Below the pieces are notes generated by a model that was not told the origin of the DNA, ran no database searches, and worked only from the letters and a program-made list of their open reading frames with translations. Shown piece by piece: positions 7,153 through 23,108 of a stretch of DNA of 64,000 nucleotides (the stretch's first letter is position 1; each line of letters opens with the position of its first letter). The stretch is from Candidatus Levyibacteriota bacterium (GTDB lineage Bacteria; Patescibacteriota; Microgenomatia; Levybacterales; UBA12049): positions 158,987 through 222,986 of the forward strand of contig CAWBPM010000004.1 of NCBI GenBank assembly GCA_963790825.1, in the 5' to 3' direction. A program made the position numbers and the translations under genes.

Positions 7153-8760
7153 TTAGGCATAAGCAGGCTGTATTTGGAAGGTTTCAAATACCGTCTTTAT
7201 ATTCTGCAAGCTAAACCCAAACTCTATTTGTCTGTTCTTGAATATATCTACTAGGGGGAGCTGAGGCTGTCTTAATATAATTTTGTGGGTATTTTCGAGA
7301 ACTTTGAAGATGGGAGTCGGTACAACTTTATAGATTTTTCTATTCTTTACTTCAAATCGCTCAAAGAAGAACCTCATATAGTGCCGTTTTAGGAAAGTCG
7401 GAGCGTCAACATAGGTTTGATGAATGTTCCTGCTGAAAGCTAAAACCTCCTCAATTAAGTCAACGTCCATCTTCCCTTTATTATCTAATTCGATAATTTG
7501 TGTGTCCAAATTAAGAATCTGCTGATAAAGTTTATCGTGGTGTCGCTTATATACATCCCGATCTATGTCTCCGTTAAGCAAAGCGTCCTCAAGCTTATCT
7601 CTTTTTGATTCAAGAGCAGTTTTTTGGTTCAATATGCCTCGTTGGGTAGATGAGGCTGTTTTTCTTGTTTCTTCCAATACGGATCGTGTCTTTTGTACTA
7701 CTGCATCTATGAAATCTTGGCTAAATTCCATTTTCTTAAATTCTTGCTCAACTAAACTTTCCATTTGCTCCATTTGAACGTAGGGAGCGGGACATCCGTT
7801 ACGATCCCTTTTCTGGCAGTGATAGTATCCTATCTTACCGCCCCGATTTTTCAATTTATCAGCATCCTTGTGCCATTCGGCTGTGTATCGCTGTCCACAT
7901 TCACCGCATATTAGAAAACCTCTGAGAAGAAAGTCGTGCACACGATGACGTAAAAGGAAATTTCTGTGTTTTGCCAAAACGTATTGGCAAGTGTCAAAAA
8001 GTTCTTTTGTAATGATTGGTTTTTGTTTACCCATTTTACTTACCCCATGCCATCGACAAAGTCCATAATAGAACGGATTATTCAAGATCGTGTTAATAAC
8101 AGAATGGCCTAGTGTTGTGCCATTTCTAGAAAGAATATTTTTTTCTGCTAACCAGTCCTGTAATTCCAGTATACTGTAATTGCCTGTGGCGTAAAGTTCA
8201 AATAGTTCTTTAATTATCGGTGATGTATCAGGATCAGGTTTACACTTTTTCTTTTCATCTTTACTTCCTACGCTCATATATCCAGGGTATCGTGAATACG
8301 GCTGCCAGCCTTCTTCAAATTTTTGTTGCAATGCGTCTTTAGTTCTGTCGCTGTTGACCTCGCTTTCCCATTGGGCTACCGAAGCAAAGAGATTTGGAAT
8401 TAGACTATTACCCTCCATGAGATCACCCTCGCTAACTGACAGTAGCTTGATACCTTTTACTTTAAAATCGTTGTACAACCGAGAAAAATCTGATACGTTG
8501 CGACAAAAACGATCAATTTTATAGACCACGACCGCATCTACTGGATGATCTTCTAGTTCCTTGAGTAGTTCTTGTAGTGCAGGTCTTTTTGCGGCAGATC
8601 TTCCAGATCGTCCACTATCATCAAATAGTCTCTTTACTTGATAGTCGTGCATTTTAGCATAATCCCGACACTGTCTGATTTGATTGTCAGGGGAGTAACC
8701 TTTATTTTTCTGTTCTTGCGTACTAACACGAATATATATGTAACAGGTAAAGCTTTTCAT
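7153..8760 (-). CDS. large serine recombinase (second copy, distinct sequence)
   Basis: YIYIRVSTQEQ catalytic motif, ...SGRSGRSAAKRPALQELL..., DAVVVYKIDRFCRN, C-terminal CGECG zinc ribbon. Confidence 0.85.
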   Translation of the reverse strand: MKSFTCYIYIRVSTQEQKNKGYSPDNQIRQCRDYAKMHDYQVKRLFDDSGRSGRSAAKRPALQELLKELEDHPVDAVVVYKIDRFCRNVSDFSRLYNDFKVKGIKLLSVSEGDLMEGNSLIPNLFASVAQWESEVNSDRTKDALQQKFEEGWQPYSRYPGYMSVGSKDEKKKCKPDPDTSPIIKELFELYATGNYSILELQDWLAEKNILSRNGTTLGHSVINTILNNPFYYGLCRWHGVSKMGKQKPIITKELFDTCQYVLAKHRNFLLRHRVHDFLLRGFLICGECGQRYTAEWHKDADKLKNRGGKIGYYHCQKRDRNGCPAPYVQMEQMESLVEQEFKKMEFSQDFIDAVVQKTRSVLEETRKTASSTQRGILNQKTALESKRDKLEDALLNGDIDRDVYKRHHDKLYQQILNLDTQIIELDNKGKMDVDLIEEVLAFSRNIHQTYVDAPTFLKRHYMRFFFERFEVKNRKIYKVVPTPIFKVLENTHKIILRQPQLPLVDIFKNRQIEFGFSLQNIKTVFETFQIQPAYA

Positions 8761-9109: not shown

Positions 9110-9649
9110 CTACCAATTGATTGCGTGACTATGGAAAATTCTGTCTAATATCGGATCATTGTCTACTACGCTAAGGCTGATAACCTCAATTCCATTTCGC
9201 TCAAAATCATCTTTTAACAGAAAATGCGTTATAACATTTCTTGTTAATCTATCCCAGCTTGTACATAAGATTCCTTGAGCCTCTTTCTTTTCAAGTCGAT
9301 GTAACATTTGCCAAAAGATTGGTCTTTTGTTACTAATACCCGAACCATATTCACTGATTACATCAACAATTTTAAAACCTGACTTTTCTTCTTCTACCAG
9401 ATCGTCTTCGTTAATAGGGTAAACTATAAGTTGTAAATCGTCTGGGTGAAGGGACGGTATGCCAAACTCTTTGCGGATCTCCTTTGCAAAGAAATCCATA
9501 ATTCCTGACTTAACATAAAGATCAAAATAGTCTTTAATAACTTTTTCTCTCCCTTGTTTGATAGGAGTTTTAGTAAGCGCTTGGTTCCATACGGATGCAA
9601 TTCTCCAAGATGAGTCATTCGGCTTAGAAGTATTCTTATCATTAAGCAT
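9110..9649 (-). CDS. resolvase-N-domain-like protein with substituted catalytic residues (likely inactive)
   Basis: Residues ~70-175 align with the serine-recombinase catalytic domain (YGSGISNKRPIFWQMLHRL ; GILCTSWDRLTRNV). The R-V-S motif position reads P-I-N. No HTH/recombinase domain. Confidence 0.5.
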   Translation of the reverse strand: MLNDKNTSKPNDSSWRIASVWNQALTKTPIKQGREKVIKDYFDLYVKSGIMDFFAKEIRKEFGIPSLHPDDLQLIVYPINEDDLVEEEKSGFKIVDVISEYGSGISNKRPIFWQMLHRLEKKEAQGILCTSWDRLTRNVITHFLLKDDFERNGIEVISLSVVDNDPILDRIFHSHAINW

Positions 9650-10162: not shown

Positions 10163-10462
10163 ATGAAGCATAATACAAAAGACATAATTAAATTCGCAAT
10201 TATAGGAGGCATCACTGTCCCTTTAATCTTATATTTTGTAGGCTTTTTCTGGATGATAATTGGAGTACTATTTTGTATTTCGATAATTGGGATATTTTTG
10301 GGAATATTCTTTTTCTTAGTTGGCGGATGGTTTTTAATGATAACAACTAATTACTTGTTATTGTTTATTGTTTTAGGCGCAATCTCAGGGATAGTATTTA
10401 GGCCTATCTATCAAAACATGATAAACAAAATCCAACAAGCACGAACAAAGAAAAACAAATAG
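10163..10462 (+). CDS. small integral membrane protein, hypothetical
   Basis: Three predicted TM helices, Lys-rich C-terminus. Confidence 0.4.
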   Translation: MKHNTKDIIKFAIIGGITVPLILYFVGFFWMIIGVLFCISIIGIFLGIFFFLVGGWFLMITTNYLLLFIVLGAISGIVFRPIYQNMINKIQQARTKKNK

Positions 10463-10875
10463 CAGAAGTTAAAATGATTGTATTTGTTGCAATCGTTAAT
10501 ATAGTTTGATCCGAGTATAATGGTTATACTTCTTGACGTACATAGTCCTCCTGCTTCCTATTTTGCCCTTTTGGCGCATTTTATTTAGTAACAGGATGAA
10601 ATAGTAATCTTTGGCGTTTCAGTCTGGCGAAAGCTATGTTACGCAGTTTGGGTCTCCAGCAGTTATAAAACAAGTTACACAACTTGCACCAGCTACAAAT
10701 AACCTACATTTCTATTCACATGAGCTTGTGCTCGCAAAGATATGAGCCTACACAAAATGTAATTATTTTCACTAACATATATATATTTTTGAGTTCAAAA
10801 GGTAGTAGTGTAAGTTGTGCAAGCTATATAATATTGCTTATGGATAGACACACTCCTGCACAAAGAAGTTTTAAT

Positions 10876-11259
10876 ATGTCTCAGGTAAAGTCAAAGGATA
10901 CTAAACCTGAACTGTTAATGTTTGCATTACTTGAGGAATCTGGAATTAAGTTTGAAAAACATTATTCTGTTCCTGGCAAACCTGATATAGCGTTTCCCGA
11001 ATATAGAGTAGCGGTTTTTATTGATGGGGAATTTTGGCATGGTAAGGATTTTAAGCAAATTAAAGATACATTACAGCCCTTTTGGGTTAAAAAAATAGGT
11101 GATAACATAAAAAGAGACAGAAGAACAATGGATAAGCTGAGAGTTGAAGGGTGGCATATTTTGCATTTTTGGGATAAACAAGTTATTCGGAATCCTCGAA
11201 AATCGCTCAAACGTATTAGGCAATTTCTTGAGCGTGTACAAATTTCTGGTGGAAAGTAG
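10876..11259 (+). CDS. vsr: very-short-patch repair endonuclease Vsr
   Basis: SKDTKPE, VPGKPDIAFP, FIDGEFWHG, KIGDNIKRDRR, GWHILHFWD motifs. The six-frame ORF starts at 10684, but the Vsr domain begins at MSQVKSKDTKPE. Confidence 0.8.
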   Translation: MSQVKSKDTKPELLMFALLEESGIKFEKHYSVPGKPDIAFPEYRVAVFIDGEFWHGKDFKQIKDTLQPFWVKKIGDNIKRDRRTMDKLRVEGWHILHFWDKQVIRNPRKSLKRIRQFLERVQISGGK

Positions 11260-12346
11260 GAAGCAATTTTTCTGTTGTTTCCAGCTCACGCATTGAGTAC
11301 AAGAGTGCTTCAGCGGCTCTTTTAGCAAGTAACGGAGGTACAGCATTTCCGATCTGTTTGGCAATTTCTCCGAAGTTGCCTATGAACTTAAAAGAATCAG
11401 GAAATGTTTGGAGTCGGGCGGCTTCTCTTAAAGAAATTGCTCTGTCTTGTTCAGGATGCCCAAATCTTCCTTTTGAAATCATTCCGCAACCGCCTGTCAT
11501 TGTTGGTGAAGGATAATCCCATCTCATTCTTCCGTAAACATCTTTGTGTCCCTTAGTTGTTTTATGACACTCCAGGACTAATTCGTCTGGCCATGATGTT
11601 CTATCTCCGCCGTCGTGTGGTGTATAGATGATTCTTTTAAGATTGATTTCCGCCAGACTTGCTGAGACCTGCATTGGATCATTCTCATGTTTTTCGCCTG
11701 CCTTTATTGGAGGCAGGTCTTTAATTGCTTCTCGTACAGTAGCCCACGCGGGTAAGTTATCCGAAACTGAAGGGTCAGCATTAGTTTTCGGGGGGAATGA
11801 GAGTCTGATACTCGGATTGTTTGTACCCATAAGAACCAATCTTTTTCTTCTTTGGGGAACGCCATAATCAGCGGTATTTACTACATCGTAAATCGTTTGG
11901 TAACCGAGCTCACTAAGTCTCTGTAAAATCTGCACAAATAGAGGCTTTCCGATTCCTTTAGCAAGCCCTGGAACATTTTCTAATACAAAAGCGAGCGGCT
12001 TTATTTCCTCAACTATACGCAAAAATTCGTATATAAGTTTGTTTCGCGGATCAGTAAGTCGTTGAGAATTTCTTCTTGCAGTGGAAAACCCCTGACAAGG
12101 AGGACATGCAATAAGAACTACTTCTTTACCGTTTTTGAAACCTCCAGCTTTCAGAAGTTCTGTGCCTGATAGATAGGAAATGTCAGACGGAAATACTGTA
12201 CAACCTGGAAAGTTTACCTTGAATGATTCCGAGGCATTGCTATCAATATCAACGGCAACTTTAATGGAGTAGCCTGCCTGTTCGAATCCCAACGCTGAGC
12301 CTCCACAGCCTGAAAAAAGGTCAATTACGCCCATATTCCCTTTCAT
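11216..12346 (-). CDS. dcm: DNA (cytosine-5)-methyltransferase
   Basis: Motif I DLFSGCGG, motif IV PCQGFS, motif VI ENVPGL, C-terminal QIGNAVPP; 3' end convergent and overlapping with vsr. Confidence 0.85.
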   Translation of the reverse strand: MKGNMGVIDLFSGCGGSALGFEQAGYSIKVAVDIDSNASESFKVNFPGCTVFPSDISYLSGTELLKAGGFKNGKEVVLIACPPCQGFSTARRNSQRLTDPRNKLIYEFLRIVEEIKPLAFVLENVPGLAKGIGKPLFVQILQRLSELGYQTIYDVVNTADYGVPQRRKRLVLMGTNNPSIRLSFPPKTNADPSVSDNLPAWATVREAIKDLPPIKAGEKHENDPMQVSASLAEINLKRIIYTPHDGGDRTSWPDELVLECHKTTKGHKDVYGRMRWDYPSPTMTGGCGMISKGRFGHPEQDRAISLREAARLQTFPDSFKFIGNFGEIAKQIGNAVPPLLAKRAAEALLYSMRELETTEKLLPTFHQKFVHAQEIA

Positions 12347-12436
12347 AATTATATAATAACATTTTTTGAAAACACAAAATTACCGTTTTAAGAAAAGCTT
12401 GTATCTGCTTATTCCTTGTTTCATATTTTGTATTTG

Positions 12437-12465
12437 TTGACTATATCTTAAAAATGTAGTATGAT
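12437..12465 (+). promoter_or_regulatory. sigma-70-type promoter candidate for the 12496-18319 operon
   Basis: TTGACT - 17 nt - TATGAT located ~30 nt upstream of the first ORF. Confidence 0.4.
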
Positions 12466-12495
12466 ACTCACCATGCTACGGCATAGATACATATT

Positions 12496-12723
12496 ATGAA
12501 AACCAAAGAAACAAAAAGTGCGTCTTTCAAAAGGCTTGCAGGAAACAGAACAAATAATGCAATCAGGAATATAAGACTCCTCGGTAATCTATCCAATAAG
12601 CATAACTATGCCTATACTGAGGAAGACTTCAAGCATATCTTCAGTAGTGTTGAGGAGGAACTGAAACTCGCAAAATCAAAATTTTTTGTATCGTTAAGTA
12701 AGAAGAAAAAATTTAAGCTCTAA
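12496..12723 (+). CDS. small basic hypothetical protein (75 aa), first gene of operon
   Basis: Lys/Arg-rich ORF directly after the promoter candidate. Confidence 0.4.
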   Translation: MKTKETKSASFKRLAGNRTNNAIRNIRLLGNLSNKHNYAYTEEDFKHIFSSVEEELKLAKSKFFVSLSKKKKFKL

Positions 12724-12764
12724 AAAGAAGTTAAACGCCAATTAGAATTAAAATAAATATAAAA

Positions 12765-13412
12765 ATGAATAAAAATATTACATCACTCAAACTAACCCGT
12801 TCGCAGAAGATTCTTATTTCGCTTTACCAAAGAGCCAACGGTACGAATAAGCAAATCAGGTTTGAGGACATTGCTGTTGCCGCTTTCAGGAATTTTCCCG
12901 CTGATTTTCAATTGAAAGGTTACCCGCAATATCCCGATACTGGAGACATTATCCATAAACCTTTATATAGCGAACTGAAAAAAGGCGGCTATGTATTGTC
13001 TGGAAATAAGTATTTTTCTCTTACTCCGAAAGGAGTAACCTATGCTAAAAAGTTACTCAGGGTCTCAGAGAAAGAACCTGTATCTGGTAAAGCGTCTTCA
13101 TTTATAAAACTAACAGCCGACCAACAAAAAGAACTTGATAGATTGAGAACTTCCCCAGCGGTTGAAATGTTCCTCAAGGGTAAAGAAACCGAAATTCTCG
13201 ATATAGATTTCTATTCTTATCTTGGTGTAACCGTAAGAACTAATAAAAATACTTTTTTGGGAAGATTATCAACAGTTGAAGATGCAATAAATGCAACTCA
13301 AGGAAAAAGCGATGAATTGTATACCAAATTAAGAGAGTGCCATAAATTTCTGCTTGCTAAATTTAATGAAAACATTGAATTTGTAAAACAAAGTAAAGGA
13401 GGAAACAGGTGA
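12765..13412 (+). CDS. hypothetical protein (215 aa)
   Basis: ORF overlapping the next gene by 4 nt (ATGA), indicating coupling; no recognised motif. Confidence 0.5.
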   Translation: MNKNITSLKLTRSQKILISLYQRANGTNKQIRFEDIAVAAFRNFPADFQLKGYPQYPDTGDIIHKPLYSELKKGGYVLSGNKYFSLTPKGVTYAKKLLRVSEKEPVSGKASSFIKLTADQQKELDRLRTSPAVEMFLKGKETEILDIDFYSYLGVTVRTNKNTFLGRLSTVEDAINATQGKSDELYTKLRECHKFLLAKFNENIEFVKQSKGGNR

Positions 13413-15256
13413 GTAATACTCAGCTTACAATTAAAGAAGAACCAAATGTCTTCGACGACAACATTCTGGATATCTGGGGAAATGCTTTCAACTTCAGTCA
13501 TGAAAAGGGACTTGCCGAATGGCTTAAAAACTCTGTAGATGCCTATCGTCGAGCGGGAGCACCAGATAAAGACCAGCATATTGTATTCCGCTTTACTGAT
13601 GGGAAAGATTCTTCAAATCCTCCAACAATAGAGTGTATTGATTTTGTGGGAATGGAATATTTGGATATTGAAAAAGCTCTTAAAAGATGGGGAGATCCAA
13701 ATGCGGCAAAAAGAGGGCAAAAGATAAAAGTATTTGGAGGCCATGGTAATGGGGGTAAGTTCTATATGCGTCAGATGTTCCAGCAATCATATTATTTTAC
13801 CTACAAGCAGGGTAAGCTTAATGTTTTCGGGTTTAATAAAGATAGAAAATACGGCTTTTCTCCTGATTACAAAGATAAAAAAGTTTCCTTGGAGGAGGCG
13901 TTTAAAGTTGCGGGCATAGACCGATCCATCATCCCTAATGCAATAATACGTCAACTTGAACATGGCGAGACGGGGTTTACGGTGGTCAAGGGTATAAGAC
14001 CAAAGAATTTAGTCGGCAACAAGCTCCCCGTTTATAGAATTTGTGACAAACTCAAGTATCATCCTCAGGCAAGAAGCCCTCTAAAGTTCAGCAATGTATC
14101 TGTTATTCATAATGATAAAATCTTGGTTAACAGCTTAAGAGTTGAAGCGATAGAACCACTTGAAGGATTCGAGGGTCCTTTCCTTTTTGATATTCCAGAT
14201 TTTCTTGATGCTATAGAAGGGGACAAGAAGATCAGCATGTCAAATAAAAAATATGGGAAAGGTAGTCTTGTACTTAAAACTTCTTCACTTCCATTCGGTC
14301 GCGGTGGAAGAAAGGCGGAGTTAAATTGTATTGATATAGCAGGAGAAATCGGAATAATAGCCTCTTACAGCATGGAACAGGTTGGATTTTTACAATACTT
14401 TCCTCAAGCTCAATACATCTATGGGGAATGCAGTTGTCCTATATTAGAAGATCCCGAATATGATTCTGTTCAGAATGATAGAGAAAAACTTGTTGAGAAT
14501 GAGAGAACTCAAGCATTACTACAGTGGATTGCAAGAAGAATAGATGAAGTAGCTGGAAAAATAGCGGATAAAGAAGCAAAAAAAGAAGAAGAAAACAGCA
14601 TGAAAGCATCGGATGAATTCAATAAAATTCTCAATAAGTGGAAAAATCAATTCATGTCGAAGTTGTTTGCAGAACTCTTTGGTGGATCAGGTAAGGGCGA
14701 CTCCACAGGTGGACTTGGAGACGATGGTTCTGGGGGCGGGGAAAATAAGGAATCCAAAACCAAGGGCGGTTTAGGTTCAGGATCTGGAAAAGGAGGGGGA
14801 GATGGAGAGGAGAAAAAGAAAGGCTCTGCCTTCCCAATGGTTCTGTTATCCGAGAGAGACAGAGACCCTGACTATCCAGACATCCCAGTCACTTTTTCAG
14901 AAAGACATCCAGCGGTGCAACAGCGACCCCAGGACGTTAGCAGAGGTATTTATTGGATAAACATGTCAAAACCAATGGCTAAAAAAATAAGCGAGAAATA
15001 TGGAGAAGACTCAATAGAGATGAGAAATTATATTTTTGAAAGATATGTAGACATTTTTACAAAAGAAACTATATGGAGAGAAGCTAAGAAACAAGGCGGA
15101 ACTCTCACACCAGAGCAAATTGACGACAGAATTACATATGTTGCTTCGCTTGTGTATGATACGGCAATGGTTGATTTAGAAGAAGCCCTTCTTGACAGAA
15201 AATATACTTCAAAAAAAGGTGACGAAGTACATAGTGAAAATGAACCAAAACAATAA
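13409..15256 (+). CDS. GHKL-superfamily (histidine-kinase/MORC/HSP90-like) ATPase with Gly-rich linker and C-terminal extension
   Basis: N-box EWLKNSVDA, G1 IDFVGM, G2 VFGGHGNGGKFY; low-complexity GGSGKGDSTGGLGDDGSGGGENK...GSGSGKGGGDGEE linker. Confidence 0.65.
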   Translation: MSNTQLTIKEEPNVFDDNILDIWGNAFNFSHEKGLAEWLKNSVDAYRRAGAPDKDQHIVFRFTDGKDSSNPPTIECIDFVGMEYLDIEKALKRWGDPNAAKRGQKIKVFGGHGNGGKFYMRQMFQQSYYFTYKQGKLNVFGFNKDRKYGFSPDYKDKKVSLEEAFKVAGIDRSIIPNAIIRQLEHGETGFTVVKGIRPKNLVGNKLPVYRICDKLKYHPQARSPLKFSNVSVIHNDKILVNSLRVEAIEPLEGFEGPFLFDIPDFLDAIEGDKKISMSNKKYGKGSLVLKTSSLPFGRGGRKAELNCIDIAGEIGIIASYSMEQVGFLQYFPQAQYIYGECSCPILEDPEYDSVQNDREKLVENERTQALLQWIARRIDEVAGKIADKEAKKEEENSMKASDEFNKILNKWKNQFMSKLFAELFGGSGKGDSTGGLGDDGSGGGENKESKTKGGLGSGSGKGGGDGEEKKKGSAFPMVLLSERDRDPDYPDIPVTFSERHPAVQQRPQDVSRGIYWINMSKPMAKKISEKYGEDSIEMRNYIFERYVDIFTKETIWREAKKQGGTLTPEQIDDRITYVASLVYDTAMVDLEEALLDRKYTSKKGDEVHSENEPKQ

Positions 15257-16691
15257 TGACCAATCAATCCATTCTCATCAGTTGCAAATGAACACTACAG
15301 TTCAGGGCAATTCTGGATTTGCTAACTTTATATCTTCCGAAGATATACAGCTTCCTCAAACTTTAACTCGTGATGACTCAATTGAAGTGCTTGGATTACC
15401 AGTCAAACTTGAAAATGCTCTGAAACTTAATGGAAACATTGCAACAGTAGGAGAGTTTTGTGATACATCAAAAGATAAACTAGGGAAAATTTGGACAATC
15501 GGACCGAAGTCAATAAAGTATATGCTCCAAGTACAATTTTTGATAAATGAGAAATTTGGAATCCTGAACAACAAAACAATAGATAAAGTTGTGCATGAAG
15601 AACCACCTCAATTAGTAAAGATAACTGAAAACGAACTCCTTACCTCTTTACTTAACAGATCAGGTAACAAAAGAACAATAGAAATTGTTTCCAAACGGTA
15701 TGGCTTAATGAATGGCGAGAAGCAGACCCTTGAAGAAATCGGAGATAGTTACGGAGTAACAAGAGAAAGAATACGACAAGTCCAGAAAAAAGCATTAAAC
15801 AGAATGAAACATCCGATGAGCTCAATAAAGGAACAATTAGTAGAACTAATCGAGGAAGTTATTTTTAGAAACGGTGGCATACTTTCAGCTGAGGAAGCGG
15901 ATTTAGAAATTCCTAAAGCTCTCGGCGGAATAAATGATGATGGGAGTTCAATTCTTGATTTACTTTGTGACTTAGATTGGATTCAGAACTACAGAATAGG
16001 AGACATTGTAATATATGCTCCTAAATTTGGCGGTATTTCTCTCTCTAAATTATCAGAAAGAATTATTTCGCTTGTTAAATCTGAAAATCTAGGTCTTGAT
16101 GTAGAATCTATAATAAGAAGAAATGGTTTATTTATTAAGATTAAAGACGAGCGATTTGACCCTCACGTTTTTGTACTCAGATATTGTCGTATTGACCCAC
16201 GTATTGAAGAAATCAACTTAACATCCAATCGAACGGAAACTCTTTTCAGGTACTATACATCTTCGGGGCACTTCGCCAAAAAAGGTTGGGTCGTTCTTAT
16301 GTCCAGAATACTGGAAGAAGTACAGACGCCTTTACACTATACGGAGATTGCCAATAAAGTTAATGACTTAATGGGAAACTCGGAAAACCAACTGGATGCA
16401 AGAAGGGCTCATTCGATTCTTATCGAAGACGAGGCTTTTGCTCATAGTGGCATACATGGAACATACGGTCTTACATCATGGGGTTTGCGAAAAGAAACTA
16501 CCCCAGAACTGATCGAAGAATGTCTCCGTAAAGCGGGATTTCCACTTCATTGGAAACAAATATACAACTATGTCAGTAAATATAAAGATTCTAAGCCTGG
16601 TAGCATTACCAGTGTTCTTGAAACCAATAGAATGTTTAAGAAAGTTGACAGCGGAATATATTGGTTGACAGAGAATAAAAATTCACATTAA
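15240..16691 (+). CDS. multi-HTH DNA-binding protein: alpha-CTD-like HhH + sigma-70 region-4 HTH + two HARE-HTH-like domains
   Basis: IEVLGLPVKLENALKLNGNIATVGEF...IGPKSIKYM (RNAP alpha-CTD pattern). [35 protein letters not shown] (sigma-70 region 4, nearly the same motif as the rpoD end at 200-320). PLHYTEIANKV...GTYGLTSW and PLHWKQIYNYV...GIYWLTE (HARE-HTH pattern). Start at MNQNN overlaps the upstream gene by 17 nt. Confidence 0.6.
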   Translation: MNQNNNDQSIHSHQLQMNTTVQGNSGFANFISSEDIQLPQTLTRDDSIEVLGLPVKLENALKLNGNIATVGEFCDTSKDKLGKIWTIGPKSIKYMLQVQFLINEKFGILNNKTIDKVVHEEPPQLVKITENELLTSLLNRSGNKRTIEIVSKRYGLMNGEKQTLEEIGDSYGVTRERIRQVQKKALNRMKHPMSSIKEQLVELIEEVIFRNGGILSAEEADLEIPKALGGINDDGSSILDLLCDLDWIQNYRIGDIVIYAPKFGGISLSKLSERIISLVKSENLGLDVESIIRRNGLFIKIKDERFDPHVFVLRYCRIDPRIEEINLTSNRTETLFRYYTSSGHFAKKGWVVLMSRILEEVQTPLHYTEIANKVNDLMGNSENQLDARRAHSILIEDEAFAHSGIHGTYGLTSWGLRKETTPELIEECLRKAGFPLHWKQIYNYVSKYKDSKPGSITSVLETNRMFKKVDSGIYWLTENKNSH

Positions 16692-16696
16692 AGACA

Positions 16697-18319
16697 GTGA
16701 GAGTAAAGAGCGAAAGCTTTACGCTTACTGGTTCAACTTATATAAATAATAGTATGAGAATAAAGAAAATACATCTAAAAAATTTCAAAAGATTTGATAA
16801 TCTAACAATAGATTTAGGTAATGACCCTAAAAAAATCATAGCTCTTGTTGGTCCAAATGGTTGTGGCAAAAGCTCCGTATTTGATGCTTTTGAAGAAAAA
16901 TTAAAAGATTATAAGGGGGCTAATGTCACTGAGCTTGCCTCTTTCTTTTCTAAATTATGGCACTCCAACGATCCTGCTCTCAAATCAGAAACTTATAATA
17001 AAGGAGAATCAATAAAAATACATAGAGAAGATGATAGTGAGAATTTTGATAAAAAAAGCTTTACTATTAGATCTGCATATAGGTTTACGCCTAAATTATC
17101 TGTTGATAGCGTTAGAACAAAACCTAGTATTATTGAAAATAAAGAAAGACCAGGTAGTAGTATTGCTATAGATTCTCAGTTGAGTGATAACTACGAAAGA
17201 TTACTGGGTAAACTAATCAATGAATTTTTTAATGGTACAAAAACAGGACAAGAAACTCGTGAAGAAATTCTAGGGAAGATTAACGCTATTTTAGAGAATA
17301 TATTGGATATAAAAATATCTAATTTAGGGGATGTTACCGCTGGTAAAGGGCAGCTATACTTTCTGAAAGAAAGCTCTAAGGATTTTCCATTTGAGAATTT
17401 GTCTTCTGGGGAGAAAGAAGTCGTGGATATCATTGTTGACTTGATTATTAAATCTTCAGACTATAACAACACTGTTTATTGCATAGATGAACCAGAGTTA
17501 CACCTAAATACTGCAATACAACGAAAACTACTTATTGAAGTCGAAAAACTTATACCCGACAACTGTCAATTATGGGTTGCTACTCATAGCATAGGTTTCT
17601 TAAGAGCCCTTCAAACTGACTTGAGGGATAAAACACAAGTTTTGGATTTCTCCGAGAAAGATTATTTTAACGGGGCAAAAACAATCATTCCAATCAATCA
17701 AACACGAAGAAATTGGCAACGTATCTTTAAAACTGCCCTAGAAGACTTAACTGGACTTATTGCACCCGAAAAAATTATTTATTGTGAAGGCAGAGCCGAT
17801 CCAACTTCTCAGGGAAACGAACAAGGATTAGATGCAACAGTTTATAATGAAATTTTTGAAGAAACTAACCCAGAAACATTATTTATATCAGCTGGTGGAG
17901 GGATACCACATATAAACCATTCTGCTATTGCTCTCCAAATTCTGTCAAAAGCATTCCAAGGAGTAGAGCTCTTTTTATTAAAAGATAAAGATGAAAAAAC
18001 CGATGCTGAGAGAACTACATTTATTAGCTCTACACCAGAAAATAAGATGTTAACAAGGCGAGAAATAGAGAACTATTTATTTGATATTGAAATTTTGAAA
18101 AACTACAGTAGTAAGAATGGTAGAACACTAGATGAGCAAAAATACTCGCAGATTGTTATAGATATTAAACAACAAGATTTGAAGCTAGGTCAAATACTAC
18201 AGAGCTTACAGCATTTGTGTGGAGCAAGTGGAAGTATAAGTGATTTCAAAATTGAACTTGCGAAATATATTATTCCTGAAACTTCAGTCTATTCCGAACT
18301 GAAGGGATGTATTTTTTAG
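16697..18319 (+). CDS. OLD-family / PARIS-like ABC-ATPase fused to a short Toprim (DUF4435-like) nuclease domain
   Basis: Walker A GPNGCGKSS, Walker B VYCIDEPELHL, H-loop WVATHS. C-terminal IIYCEGRADP (Toprim Glu) and LLKDKDE (DxD), ending REIENYLFD. Confidence 0.6.
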   Translation: MRVKSESFTLTGSTYINNSMRIKKIHLKNFKRFDNLTIDLGNDPKKIIALVGPNGCGKSSVFDAFEEKLKDYKGANVTELASFFSKLWHSNDPALKSETYNKGESIKIHREDDSENFDKKSFTIRSAYRFTPKLSVDSVRTKPSIIENKERPGSSIAIDSQLSDNYERLLGKLINEFFNGTKTGQETREEILGKINAILENILDIKISNLGDVTAGKGQLYFLKESSKDFPFENLSSGEKEVVDIIVDLIIKSSDYNNTVYCIDEPELHLNTAIQRKLLIEVEKLIPDNCQLWVATHSIGFLRALQTDLRDKTQVLDFSEKDYFNGAKTIIPINQTRRNWQRIFKTALEDLTGLIAPEKIIYCEGRADPTSQGNEQGLDATVYNEIFEETNPETLFISAGGGIPHINHSAIALQILSKAFQGVELFLLKDKDEKTDAERTTFISSTPENKMLTRREIENYLFDIEILKNYSSKNGRTLDEQKYSQIVIDIKQQDLKLGQILQSLQHLCGASGSISDFKIELAKYIIPETSVYSELKGCIF

Positions 18320-18423
18320 AATTAGCTTGGACTGTTATAATCAAACAACTTTCCGAGGACAGCGAGTAGCTTGCGGTTGAGAAAAAGTTTTGCGAGGAAC
18401 ACCAATCCTCGGAAAGGTTAAAA

Positions 18424-18585
18424 ATGAGAAAGGTTGTTAAACCTAATATCATCTATAAGTACGTTGGCGATGAATCTCCTGAAAAGAAGAAAGAGGCAGA
18501 AAGAATAATACAGGATTTCTATTTCTCATTGTTTGATGAAACCGCAAGAAGGATCAGGGAAAAGCAAAAATCCAAAAAGAAATGA
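18424..18585 (+). CDS. small hypothetical protein (53 aa), possible last gene of operon
   Basis: GGAAAGG Shine-Dalgarno-like sequence before the ATG; lies between the nuclease gene and the terminator. Confidence 0.3.
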   Translation: MRKVVKPNIIYKYVGDESPEKKKEAERIIQDFYFSLFDETARRIREKQKSKKK

Positions 18586-18709
18586 GTTTTGCATTCAGTA
18601 GTCTTGCTAGAATTTTGTTTACCTATTTACTATACTTGAATTACCTTTTGAGTTTTTTACGTGCAAGATGTTTTTGGTTTGCAAGGAGCGAACTCGTCCG
18701 TAAAAAGGA

Positions 18710-18746
18710 AACCGAGACCCTAGCCAGTCTCGGTTTATTATTTTTT
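18710..18746 (+). terminator. rho-independent terminator
   Basis: GAAACCGAGACCC-tagcca-GTCTCGGTTT hairpin followed by TTATTATTTTTT. Confidence 0.55.
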
Positions 18747-18870
18747 AGGCTGCGTATAGAAAGTGCGCCACGGGTGGCGAGTTTTATTGCTTAAATCCTT
18801 CAAAGCGGCATAGATTTTTGAACACCTATATGCTGACCTGGGTATTCAGAGAGAACGAATGTTTCTGTAG

Positions 18871-19628: not shown

Positions 19629-20657
19629 ATGGCAAGTGATTTTAAACGAGTCAGATACATACGACCAAAACTCTCCAAATTGAGCTATCATATCGAGATG
19701 AAGGCTCTTGAGGATGCAATGGCTTGTGAGTTATCAGATGTTGCTGCTTTTAGGATGCATGTGATCACCCATTACTACAAATATGGACTGCGTGCCACTC
19801 TTGATGCTTTTAATCTGAAACAAAGTACTTTCTATGACTGGAAGTGGGCATATGAGAGAAACAATCGGCGTGTCATTGCACTTGTTCCAAAATCAACACA
19901 ACCAAAAACAACAAGAGTAATGAAAACTGATCCACAGATAATTGAATTCATTAAGCAGATGCGAGTGGGACATGGGAACATAGGAAAAGAAATGATCAAA
20001 CCATTTGTGGATGCTTATTGCAAAAAACTTGGTATCAATACCATAGGACCAACTACTATTGGAAAGATCATCAAAAGGAAGAACTTTACCTTTGAGAAGA
20101 AGGTTTACCCACAAAAACAGCAAAACAGGTTCAAAAAGCTAAGAGTCAGAAAGTCTCCAAAGGTGACAAGTCCCGGATTTATCCAAATGGATTCCATAGT
20201 GGTATATATCAACTATGAGAAACATTTGTTTATGAGTGTGATTGATATTTTTACTAAATATGCACATGTCGTATATGTGGATACAATTTCTTCAGCAAAT
20301 GCAAAAAGAGTTTTCCAAGAGTTTATAGAGCTTAATCCGACATCCATTCATACAGTGCAAACAGACAATGGCTCTGAATTTCTCAAATCTTTCCATGCAT
20401 ATTTAGAAGAGCAACAGATTAAGCACCAATTCATTTATCCCAGAATGCCAAAGATCAATTCCTACATCGAGAGGTTTAACAGAACTATTCAAGAAGAGTT
20501 TATTCTCAGAAATGATGAGATTTATTACGATATTCCAGCTATGAACAGGAAACTCACCAAATATCTTTTCTGGTACAATTACCAAAGACCTCACAGGTCA
20601 CTTCATTACATGTCGCCTATGTCATTTATTGAAACCAATCTTCCGAAATGTGGGTGA
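19629..20657 (+). CDS. IS481-family-like DDE transposase (HTH + rve integrase core)
   Basis: Single 342-aa ORF with ...VQTDNGSEF...YNYQRPHRSL integrase-core motifs. Confidence 0.75.
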   Translation: MASDFKRVRYIRPKLSKLSYHIEMKALEDAMACELSDVAAFRMHVITHYYKYGLRATLDAFNLKQSTFYDWKWAYERNNRRVIALVPKSTQPKTTRVMKTDPQIIEFIKQMRVGHGNIGKEMIKPFVDAYCKKLGINTIGPTTIGKIIKRKNFTFEKKVYPQKQQNRFKKLRVRKSPKVTSPGFIQMDSIVVYINYEKHLFMSVIDIFTKYAHVVYVDTISSANAKRVFQEFIELNPTSIHTVQTDNGSEFLKSFHAYLEEQQIKHQFIYPRMPKINSYIERFNRTIQEEFILRNDEIYYDIPAMNRKLTKYLFWYNYQRPHRSLHYMSPMSFIETNLPKCG

Positions 20658-20704: not shown

Positions 20705-21115
20705 ATGGATCAAGTTATAAAAATTGGCTGTGAAATATTCGTTATCAAAGAAGGCAAACTCTTATTTGGTATAAGAAAAAATATTTATGGAGATGGTTCA
20801 TGGGGATTACCTGGCGGACATTTAGAGTATGGAGAAAAATTAGTTGATGCTGCAAAGAGAGAGTTGGAGGAAGAAACCGGGATTAAAAATGTAGACCTTA
20901 TATTAACCAATATTGTTGATGACCCACGAGAAGACCAGCATTATCTTCATGTTGCGTTTAAGTTAGATAACTATAAAGGGGATGTTGAACTAAAAGAGCC
21001 AGAAAAGTGTGAGGAATGGAAATTTTTTCCTCTTGATAGTTTGCCTGAAAACATTTTTATTGGGCACAGGAAAATTATAGGTACTTTTCTTAAAGATAAG
21101 CTTTATTTGTATTAA
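20705..21115 (+). CDS. NUDIX hydrolase
   Basis: Nudix box GGHLEYGEKLVDAAKRELEEETGI. Confidence 0.8.
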   Translation: MDQVIKIGCEIFVIKEGKLLFGIRKNIYGDGSWGLPGGHLEYGEKLVDAAKRELEEETGIKNVDLILTNIVDDPREDQHYLHVAFKLDNYKGDVELKEPEKCEEWKFFPLDSLPENIFIGHRKIIGTFLKDKLYLY

Positions 21116-21418: not shown

Positions 21419-22237
21419 TTAATTCTTACTTCTATCTAATCTCCAAGTTGATGAGACAAATCTTGGAATCCCTAGAATTCCTCTCTTTTTATAGGTTAAC
21501 TCTCGGAAAGTATGCATATCTTCCATTCTAAAACTAAAAATAACCTCTCTGAAATTTCTTGATAATGCCAGTTCTAAAGCTAATGGAGCAGAGGAAATTC
21601 TATTGAAATTAACCCTCGGATCAGTAAGTATTTCCTCGTCCAAACAAGTGGGCGTTTCTGAGTAAATTCTATGCTTGCCTTTTCCCTCTGTTTCGGCTGT
21701 TTCGCCCGGCTTTACTTTTGACAGTAAATCTAACGCCATGTCTTTCCCAAATAATATTTGCTCCCCCTGCGATAGCGGTAGATCGCGCCCTGAACTGCCA
21801 GGACCCTGAGATAAGGCTGATAAAGTAATTTTACAGGGCTCTTCGGGGTCAGCCAAATTACCGAAATCCAGTAAAGGCGAAAAGGGTTCATTGATACGCA
21901 GAGAAATATTATTATGACGCATAAAATACAACTCACGTTCACCTACCGTAAGATGTGGATGAACAACATGCTCCATTCGTCTTTGTGCACTATAAATAAT
22001 TGAAAGTGCTCTCCACCCATATTTTGAAATTATTCTAATTGGTTCCTGCCTTAAGGCATTTTCTTCCGGGGTAGGTCTAAAGGGTCCATCTGTAGCCATA
22101 AATATACTCCTTTTTGGAACAGCAGCGGAATAATACTCTCTGGGAAACAAATTGTCAAATAGGTGTGGAACTGCAAGACATGGGTTACGCTCAGATTTTA
22201 GCTTTTTCTCTAAATCTTTCATACGGTGTTTGTCCAT
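21419..22237 (-). CDS. hypothetical protein, GC-richer than surroundings, overlapping transposase 3' end
   Basis: 272-aa ORF at roughly 48% GC in a ~35% GC context; no recognised motif. Confidence 0.35.
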   Translation of the reverse strand: MDKHRMKDLEKKLKSERNPCLAVPHLFDNLFPREYYSAAVPKRSIFMATDGPFRPTPEENALRQEPIRIISKYGWRALSIIYSAQRRMEHVVHPHLTVGERELYFMRHNNISLRINEPFSPLLDFGNLADPEEPCKITLSALSQGPGSSGRDLPLSQGEQILFGKDMALDLLSKVKPGETAETEGKGKHRIYSETPTCLDEEILTDPRVNFNRISSAPLALELALSRNFREVIFSFRMEDMHTFRELTYKKRGILGIPRFVSSTWRLDRSKN

Positions 22238-23108
22238 TTAATGCCGAATGTGGTCTTTCAAAGTTGTAGAAGTTTTCCCACTCCTGCAGTTTTTCATTAA
22301 ATAGCTTGGTATCATCAATAACTACTCCTTCTAACATACGATAGAACTCCTCTTCGTCAATTCTGTGAGATCGTTCAACTTTTCCATTAAGCCTTGGTGT
22401 TCTTGGTCTAATATACACATGATTAATTCCTTTATCAAGGATGTGCCAATGGAATTGGCCTTGAAACTCTGATCCGTTATCTGTCTGAATTACTTCGGTA
22501 TGAAACGGTAGTCGAGAAAGAACATAATCAACAAACTGTATTGCAGTTAACTGGTTGTTTCTCTCATATATTTTTAACACCCTGAGTCTTGTACAATCAT
22601 CAATTGCAGTGAATTGATAATATCTTTGCCTTGTATCTTTTATTCGCTCAAGAAACTTTACATCCACTTGTATGCTGTGGCCCGGTTGAGGCTTTTCATA
22701 CCGTTTCCACCGCTCTGTGTGCTTTTTGTATCGTTGATTTGCTGGGAGTAAATTCATATTTAATCTTTTAAGCATTTTCCAAATACTTGATCTGTTAATG
22801 ACAATTCCATGATATCGTTCTAAGTACATCTTTATGCGTAGTGGACCAAAATGATAGGTTTGTCTTAAGTACACAACTTTAGCAACAATTTCAACTGGCG
22901 TTGCCATAGGGCTATTGTGTGGGCGTCTTGATTTATCTCGTAATCCTTCTTCACCCTCTTCTTGGTAACGTTTAAGCCACTCATAATACGCTGTCCTACC
23001 GATTCCGTAATACCTACAGGTTTTTGCTACATTGTGTGTAACTTCTTCCATGTGTCGTAGAACTCCCAGTCGCCATTTTTGCAATCGTTTTATTTCTTGT
23101 TCAGACAT
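22191..23108 (-). CDS. IS481-family DDE transposase
   Basis: N-terminal HTH (TCRYYGIGRTAYYEWLKRY), rve core ...IQTDNGSEFQGQ...YNFERPHSAL. Confidence 0.8.
   Translation of the reverse strand: MSEQEIKRLQKWRLGVLRHMEEVTHNVAKTCRYYGIGRTAYYEWLKRYQEEGEEGLRDKSRRPHNSPMATPVEIVAKVVYLRQTYHFGPLRIKMYLERYHGIVINRSSIWKMLKRLNMNLLPANQRYKKHTERWKRYEKPQPGHSIQVDVKFLERIKDTRQRYYQFTAIDDCTRLRVLKIYERNNQLTAIQFVDYVLSRLPFHTEVIQTDNGSEFQGQFHWHILDKGINHVYIRPRTPRLNGKVERSHRIDEEEFYRMLEGVVIDDTKLFNEKLQEWENFYNFERPHSALNGQTPYERFREKAKI

Follow-up and report, generated by a model that had tools for sequence, protein, structure and literature searches.

A 64,000-nucleotide stretch of contig CAWBPM010000004.1 from a Candidatus Levyibacteriota bacterium (assembly GCA_963790825.1; the whole stretch is hereafter called the window) carries, at 16754-18319 on the forward strand, a gene whose product joins an ATP-binding cassette (ABC) ATPase to a predicted Toprim nuclease domain. 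The overall explanation that we favour, with a probability of roughly 0.65, is that this gene encodes, as a single chain, an anti-phage (abortive-infection) enzyme that belongs to the OLD/PARIS superfamily and is made of an ABC ATPase joined to a Toprim nuclease of the DUF4435 type. Support comes from the domain composition, the conserved catalytic residues, the homology to DUF4435 fusions, the stand-alone behaviour of the gene and its mobile or defence-related context. It is very probable that the protein is a relative of AriAB in which an ABC ATPase and a DUF4435-type Toprim domain are fused, and a defence role is likely. The proposal that tRNA specifically is the substrate, made by analogy, is tentative and somewhat doubtful.

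The gene, its start codon and the conserved motifs

The open reading frame (ORF) at 16697-18319 (+) was confirmed in the sequence, its longest form opening at the GTG codon at 16697. The full-length homologues (about 120) are 518-526 amino acids (aa) long and have as first residue the methionine of MRIKK..., and 521 aa is also what the gene caller gave for an identical contig from a metagenome. The true start is therefore most likely ATG 16754, giving a product of 521 aa, to which all residue numbers below refer. The gene and the parts of its product are as follows.

16754-18319, + strand: gene for the 521-aa fused ABC-ATPase/Toprim protein (homologue starts, gene call on the identical contig)
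16754-17653, + strand: ABC/SMC-type ATPase head, aa 1-300 (Pfam matches, invariant motifs, AlphaFold2 model)
16850-16876, + strand: Walker A, GPNGCGKSS, aa 33-41 (sequence motif)
17159-17302, + strand: two-helix insertion in the ATPase head, aa 136-183 (AlphaFold2 helices at 136-160 and 165-183)
17399-17419, + strand: ABC signature, LSSGEKE, aa 216-222 (sequence motif)
17480-17506, + strand: Walker B, CIDEPELHL, aa 243-251 (sequence motif)
17576-17590, + strand: H-loop, VATHS, aa 275-279 (sequence motif)
17756-18088, + strand: predicted Toprim core of the DUF4435 type, aa ~335-445 (Foldseek, hhalign, invariant residues)
17774-17791, + strand: E345 in IIYCEG, aa 341-346 (Toprim Glu, invariant)
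17825-17836, + strand: D360 in GLDA, aa 358-361 (invariant)
17981-17992, + strand: D411 and D413 in KDKD (DxD), aa 410-413 (invariant)
18062-18076, + strand: E439 in EIENY, aa 437-441 (invariant)
18086-18316, + strand: C-terminal helical bundle, aa ~445-521, with invariant K477 (AlphaFold2 helices at 445-520; predicted local distance difference test, pLDDT, around 90)

Every motif quoted by the initial annotation (GPNGCGKSS, CIDEPELHL, VATHS, IIYCEG and KDKD) was found in the sequence. The ABC signature LSSGEKE is also present, as are two conserved motifs that had not been named, GLDA and EIENY. In an alignment with 21 relatives, down to 28% identity, the invariant positions of the ATPase comprise the whole of Walker A, L216, S217, G219, E220, K221, D245, E246 and H278, and those of the Toprim domain E345, G346, D360, D411, D413 and E439. 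The invariance of these residues at such divergence shows that both catalytic centres are under selection and that the motifs did not arise by chance. The initial annotation had also described the protein as shorter than most OLD and GajA proteins; at 521 aa it is not unusually short, the OLD protein of Thermus scotoductus (Ts) having 528 aa. Rfam and tRNA scans of the surroundings of the gene gave no match.

The ATPase half

Pfam searches with aa 1-300 returned AAA_21 (5.9e-19), AAA_15 (3.9e-18) and SMC_N (2.7e-11), and also AAA_23 and ABC_tran. With Walker A, signature, Walker B and H-loop all intact, these matches bear out the original assignment of an ABC ATPase. An AlphaFold2 model of the whole protein, built with 38 homologues (mean pLDDT 83; predicted template modelling score, pTM, 0.77), has an ABC head of the Rad50/SMC-like kind with a two-helix insertion, and its best Foldseek matches in the PDB were PtuA/retron ATPases, GajA and Ts OLD. 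The insertion at aa 136-183 corresponds to the coiled-coil or insertion region that AriA, Rad50 and OLD have, and it is a candidate dimerisation or sensor element.

The C-terminal domain is predicted to be a divergent DUF4435-type Toprim nuclease

A separate model of the C-terminal domain (pLDDT 81) was made because ATPase matches dominated the Foldseek search with the whole model. Its top match in the PDB was the C-terminal region of Burkholderia pseudomallei OLD (6nk8_B; E 1e-3, probability 1.0, 217 columns), followed by four chains of the small Toprim protein 2fcj/2i5r (probability 0.95-0.98); the E-values of these OLD and small Toprim matches are marginal. The Toprim domain of RNase M5 was found lower in the list. 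The top matches of the predicted structure are thus all Toprim proteins, and the region models as a Toprim domain, as had been proposed from its motifs. A Foldseek search against viral structures returned nothing significant, the sole named Toprim match being that of DnaG (probability 0.72).

The sequence type of the domain was determined by profile comparison. With hhalign, the C-terminal profile of the family to which the window protein belongs aligned to the DUF4435 domains of five fused AriAB proteins with 96.3% probability (E 1.6e-9, 153 columns). The catalytic motifs were in register, IIYCEG of the window family falling on VLFVEG, GLDA on a conserved D, LKDRD on IDRD and EIENY on EIENL, and part of the helical bundle at aa ~445-521 aligned with the DUF4435 helical tail. 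When the same profile was compared with C-terminal regions of the OLD Toprim type, the probability was only 0.5%, the OLD profile consisting of two PF20469 sequences only. The difference between the two comparisons argues for a nuclease domain of the AriB/DUF4435 type, in a divergent form.

In agreement with the profile alignment, the best PADLOC model for the whole protein was 'AriAB' PDLC02981 (1e-37, 128 bits, model positions 283-530 of 694), which was also the sole model to match the isolated C-terminal domain (8.8e-7). The earlier label 'fused AriA-AriB-like' is upheld in that AriAB is the best PADLOC model and the nuclease domain aligns to DUF4435, but it has to be narrowed, since the protein is not a full-length member of either AriAB model.

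Fusions of AriA and AriB have already been described as two 'merged' clades, merged 1 and 2 (Burman et al. 2024, PMC11464382). Five weaker relatives of the window protein (L027, L038, L045, L048 and L052; 23-30% identity, 530-550 aa), in which the tblastn match runs through the nuclease region, carry AAA_21 and DUF4435 (PF14491, 1e-13 to 2e-15). They score 454-483 bits, end to end, on the PADLOC AriAB model PDLC02982, which identifies them as genuine merged PARIS proteins. The scores of the window protein on the AriAB models are partial and of about a quarter of that strength, which places it outside both modelled merged clades and, it appears, in a separate conserved fused lineage. A literature search under the name 'AriAB' returned unrelated papers only.

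Several results weigh against a DUF4435-type, PARIS-related enzyme. Pfam DUF4435 (PF14491) was matched neither by the whole protein (E<=0.01) nor by the isolated C-terminal domain (E<=10), and OLD-like_TOPRIM (PF20469) was likewise matched by neither (E<=10); the isolated C-terminal 230 residues gave one chance match only in Pfam at E<=10. The C-terminal family profile found no Toprim or AriB chain among PDB sequences, and AriB (8UX9) was not among the top 50 Foldseek matches of the C-terminal model, the best of which was an OLD protein. The AriAB scores of the window protein, 128 bits on PDLC02981 and 49 bits on PDLC02982, compare with 454-483 bits for true members. Finally, tblastn against 50,697 phage genomes detected no homologue, and PARIS is often phage- or satellite-borne.

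The alternative that survives best, although we regard it as unlikely, is that the protein functions as an OLD nuclease of Class 1. Such an ATPase-Toprim enzyme, encoded by one gene, would nick or degrade DNA, like P2 Old, Ts OLD and Vibrio cholerae OLD, and would not cleave tRNA. The gene has the corresponding architecture, lacking a helicase, reverse transcriptase or separate nuclease partner; its product equals Ts OLD in length, the C-terminal model has the B. pseudomallei OLD region as best structural match, and the alignments of the whole model with GajA and Ts OLD extend over about 590-660 columns. One homologue was named 'ATP-dependent endonuclease of OLD family' by the Joint Genome Institute (JGI). 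The sequence of the nuclease domain argues the other way, given the missing PF20469 match, an hhalign probability of 0.5% for OLD-type Toprim against 96% for DUF4435, and DRD and EIEN motifs that fit the DUF4435 pattern. The description 'class-1 OLD-like' in the initial annotation thus applies to the single-gene architecture and fails for the sequence type of the Toprim domain.

Size and spread of the lineage

A word-indexed protein search with the full-length query returned 3,641 proteins at E<=1e-5, a count that includes ATPase-only relatives picked up by such a query. The best 120 of the 3,641 are without exception full-length proteins, at 55-69% identity; the sources named for a few of them are Parcubacteria, Pacebacteria, other Patescibacteria and Ignavibacteriaceae. 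In an exhaustive HMMER search of 1.84 billion cluster representatives, the C-terminal profile matched 723 clusters at E<=1e-3 and 433 at E<=1e-10 (clusters at 50% identity). The domain was nearly always located at positions ~290-530 of proteins of 500-560 aa, indicating that the fused architecture is the rule. Shorter matches look like fragments, and no clear two-gene version of the family was seen among these representatives. A scan of one genome per species found full-length relatives in Gammaproteobacteria, Acidobacteriota, Treponemataceae, cyanobacteria, Herbaspirillum, Mycoplasmatota, Isoptericola, Dehalococcoidia, Planctomycetota and others.

Cultured organisms with a homologue include Herbaspirillum lusitanum P6-12, Perlucidibaca piscinae and Zymomonas mobilis ATCC 10988. 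The Zymomonas protein, WP_014466397.1, is full length and 33% identical, is encoded on plasmid pZMOB01 (L061, 7001-8599), is labelled only 'AAA family ATPase' in RefSeq and stands alone between RelE/ParE and YafQ/DinJ toxin-antitoxin pairs.

Neighbourhoods of the relatives

The surroundings of the gene were compared in 22 other loci. All-versus-all clustering revealed no conserved partner gene in these loci, the shared neighbours being only type I restriction-modification (R-M) genes and recombinases, and BLAST detected no homologues of the window's upstream genes near the gene. When 108 neighbour proteins, drawn from 19 loci, were surveyed with Pfam, the count was headed by ResIII, SWI2_SNF2, HSDR_N and T1R_D3, by resolvase/recombinase domains, rve transposases and phage integrases, and by N6_Mtase, HsdM_N, Methylase_S and Eco57I methylases. 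In three loci (L017, L019 and L021) the gene is located between hsdS and hsdR, and in a fourth (L020) it is directly followed by hsdR; elsewhere it stands alone among sugar-metabolism genes (L001) or on a recombinase-bearing element (L003). This is the genomic behaviour of an autonomous, horizontally mobile defence gene.

The members embedded in type I R-M operons are distant from the window protein, at ~30% identity (L017, 4844-15443; L019, 4107-15283; L021, 9813-16135; L020, 1545-4697), and the operon order around them is hsdM-hsdS-(ATPase-Toprim)-..-hsdR. Accessory genes of the RloA/RloB and PrrC types are known inside type I R-M operons. Of the 22 loci, 3 have a homologue that is either truncated or broken into two ORFs (L007, 8001-9278; L013, 8016-9533; L014, 7980-9610), which could reflect pseudogenisation of a potentially toxic gene or an assembly error.

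Context of the gene in the window

The whole stretch from 1 to 23 kb of the window looks like a mobile island. Its main features, apart from the ATPase-Toprim gene, are listed below.

1126-2610, 7153-8760 and 9110-9649 (truncated): three serine recombinase genes, left of the ATPase-Toprim gene
10684-11259, + strand: Vsr
11216-12346, - strand: C5 DNA methyltransferase (Dcm)
12437-12465: strong promoter-like site, ahead of the gene set that begins with the 75-aa gene
18709-18736, bidirectional: strong terminator-like hairpin, the first downstream of the ATPase-Toprim gene
19629-20657 and 22191-23108: IS481-family transposase genes, right of the ATPase-Toprim gene
20705-21115: NUDIX gene between the two IS481 genes

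An HTH_3 regulator is also encoded to the left, and no tRNA gene was found in the window. The promoter-like site is followed by a tight co-directional set of genes for proteins of 75, 215, 615 and 483 aa. The N-terminus of the 615-aa protein reads as a GHKL/Bergerat-like ATPase (ExxxNxxDA, DFVGM and GGHGNGGK), with Pfam HATPase_c_3 at only E 0.018, and the 483-aa protein has domains resembling the C-terminal domain of the RNA polymerase alpha subunit, sigma-70 region 4 and HARE-HTH. Neither the 215-aa nor the 615-aa protein gave a significant match in Pfam, NCBIfam or PADLOC. The sigma region 4 of the 483-aa protein resembles that of MzaA, and the 615-aa family has 914 matches, many of them in bacteria of the candidate phyla radiation (CPR). 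The module at 10684-16691 looks like a reduced Mza/MORC-like restriction system, and it may hold more novelty than the ATPase-Toprim gene itself.

This arrangement gives rise to a second alternative, which we consider improbable, namely that the ATPase-Toprim protein is not autonomous and serves the upstream Dcm/Vsr-linked operon as its effector subunit, forming one multi-gene system with the 75-, 215-, 615- and 483-aa proteins. The gene begins 62 nucleotides after the 483-aa gene on the same strand, the one strong promoter-like site stands ahead of the set at 12437-12465 and the only strong terminator follows the ATPase-Toprim gene at 18709-18736, and the identical gene arrangement is found on another contig (L005). 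However, L058 and L059 also carry the Vsr/Dcm/75/215/~610/~480 set, and L060 a rearranged form of it, without the ATPase-Toprim gene, and the latter occurs without the module in the 22 other loci. In L058 the ~480-aa gene is followed by genes for a Hypoth_Ymh (PF09509) protein and a 273-aa protein (10278-11791), and in L059 by genes for a Trypsin_2 protease and a 457-aa protein (10276-12920). Since other genes occupy the same position, the slot after the ~480-aa gene (16692-18319 in the window) is a variable one for cargo, filled here by the ATPase-Toprim gene, and it forms the 3' end of a restriction-like module that is conserved and linked to methylation. The gene may well share a transcript with the module here without being a fixed component of it. 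The upstream 215-, 615- and 483-aa genes were accordingly rejected as obligate partners, as module and ATPase-Toprim gene are each found without the other.

Downstream, the GajB UvrD-like helicase expected of a Gabija system is absent from the position directly after the gene, where only a 53-aa ORF, the terminator and an IS481 transposase gene are found. The 53-aa ORF is Lys-rich and lies at 18425-18586, before the terminator hairpin. An 11-bp inverted repeat, CTTTCCGAGGA / TCCTCGGAAAG, is present near 18351 and 18400, between the stop codon of the ATPase-Toprim gene and the hairpin. The region 18320-18800 gave no Rfam match.

A housekeeping repair ATPase of the RecF/SbcC/SMC type, with a C-terminus that has no nuclease role, was rejected as exceedingly improbable: the weak N-terminal matches to SMC, Rad50, RecF and SbcC models span only 40-60 residues around Walker A and reach 16-29 bits in NCBIfam against family cut-offs of 172-1000, the family is scattered patchily over unrelated phyla at 55-69% identity, the contexts are variable and rich in mobile elements with no conserved synteny, and the Toprim acidic residues are invariant.

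Proposed function and mechanism

The mechanism proposed for the single-chain abortive-infection enzyme draws on the PARIS and OLD biology described in PMC11464382 and PMC12409363, from which we infer its defence role, trigger, substrate and mode of activation. By analogy with these systems, the ATPase part would assemble into an ATP-dependent oligomer that keeps the nuclease switched off and detects some product of the phage, which is plausibly an anti-restriction protein. Such a protein is a reasonable candidate trigger because the family is found repeatedly beside or inside R-M loci. PARIS itself responds to phage anti-restriction proteins such as Ocr, and its effector cleaves tRNA-Lys(UUU); for the window protein, adjacency to R-M genes is circumstantial support for a trigger of this kind. 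Binding of the trigger and ATP turnover would free the Toprim active site (E345, D360, D411, D413 and E439), a putative two-metal nuclease. The freed nuclease would then cut an essential host nucleic acid, the most likely being tRNA, in the manner of AriB, or else DNA, in the manner of OLD, and this cleavage would halt growth and phage replication, aborting the infection.

The AriB of two-gene PARIS dimerises once the AriA scaffold has released it (PMC11464382, PMC12409363). As the two halves of the window protein are covalently linked, its activation would have to be a rearrangement in cis and not a release of the nuclease.

A bolder reading, speculative and in our judgement unlikely to be right in all its parts, is that the family is a third, hitherto unclassified single-chain PARIS-like lineage that was recruited repeatedly as a 'second line' behind restriction systems, senses anti-restriction proteins and is activated in cis. 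This would place the lineage (433-723 clusters) in CPR bacteria, Ignavibacteria, spirochaetes and proteobacteria at 55-69% identity, and the restriction systems that it backs would be type I R-M operons and, here, the Dcm/Vsr-GHKL module. If this reading were true, activation in cis would have to work otherwise than by the release and dimerisation seen in two-gene PARIS.

Neither the architecture of such a protein nor its likely logic is new, since merged PARIS has been described and is included in the PADLOC models. Fused ABC-ATPase/Toprim defence proteins are known and the mechanism of PARIS has been dissected, and the find is unsurprising in kind. Its new part is modest and consists of what appears, from sequence comparison, to be a distinct, compact (521 aa) and strongly conserved lineage of fused PARIS-like proteins. 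Pfam sees this lineage only as an AAA ATPase, the RefSeq record examined says 'AAA family ATPase', and defence hidden Markov models (HMMs) match it partially. A small fused protein would be a convenient model for how a PARIS-type sensor activates a nuclease that it cannot release, and the Zymomonas protein WP_014466397.1 is a convenient experimental candidate. The recurrent placement beside restriction systems leads to a testable hypothesis on the trigger.

Comparison with known systems

AbiL and RloA-RloB likewise combine an ATPase with a Toprim-like protein, and the distant relatives in L017, L019 and L021 show this combination between hsd genes; weak AbiLi matches were also obtained on the ATPase of the window protein. 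Unlike these systems, the window protein is fused and not encoded by two genes, and Pfam scans gave no RloB (PF13707) match.

Gabija GajA and the retron ATPase-Toprim and PtuA effectors share the fold of the ABC ATPase head and provided the top Foldseek matches of the whole model. They differ in having partners, as no GajB-like helicase, HNH PtuB or reverse transcriptase was found beside the gene, here or in the relatives.

The Class 1 OLD proteins (P2 Old, Ts OLD 6P74 and V. cholerae OLD) are encoded by single genes, are of similar length and have the same order of ATPase and Toprim. Among PDB structures, an OLD protein matches the fold of the C-terminal domain best, and in the window and the 22 loci no UvrD-like helicase, reverse transcriptase or other fixed partner stands beside the gene. 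The Toprim domain of the window protein is nevertheless of another sequence family (no PF20469 match; hhalign 0.5%).

Two-gene PARIS (AriA and AriB of E. coli B185, PDB 8UX9) likewise consists of a sensor, which is an ABC ATPase, and an effector of the Toprim type. The window protein retains the Toprim Glu that corresponds to E26 of AriB, and the anti-restriction logic of PARIS agrees with the R-M neighbourhoods of the family. On the other hand, the window protein is fused, so that release and dimerisation in the style of AriB are impossible as described; its ATPase insertion (about 48 aa) is far shorter than IS1 plus IS2 of AriA, and no sequence match to the AriB chain was found, with AriA matched only at E 0.026.

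Merged PARIS AriAB (PDLC02982/PDLC02981) differs in that the window protein has 23-30% identity to its members, a partial HMM match, no Pfam DUF4435 match and, apparently, a lineage of its own. The two nevertheless share a single chain of ~520-570 aa in which an AAA_21/AAA_15 ABC ATPase is followed by a Toprim domain of the DUF4435 type, with the catalytic motifs in the same order, E-G, D, DRD and EIEN.

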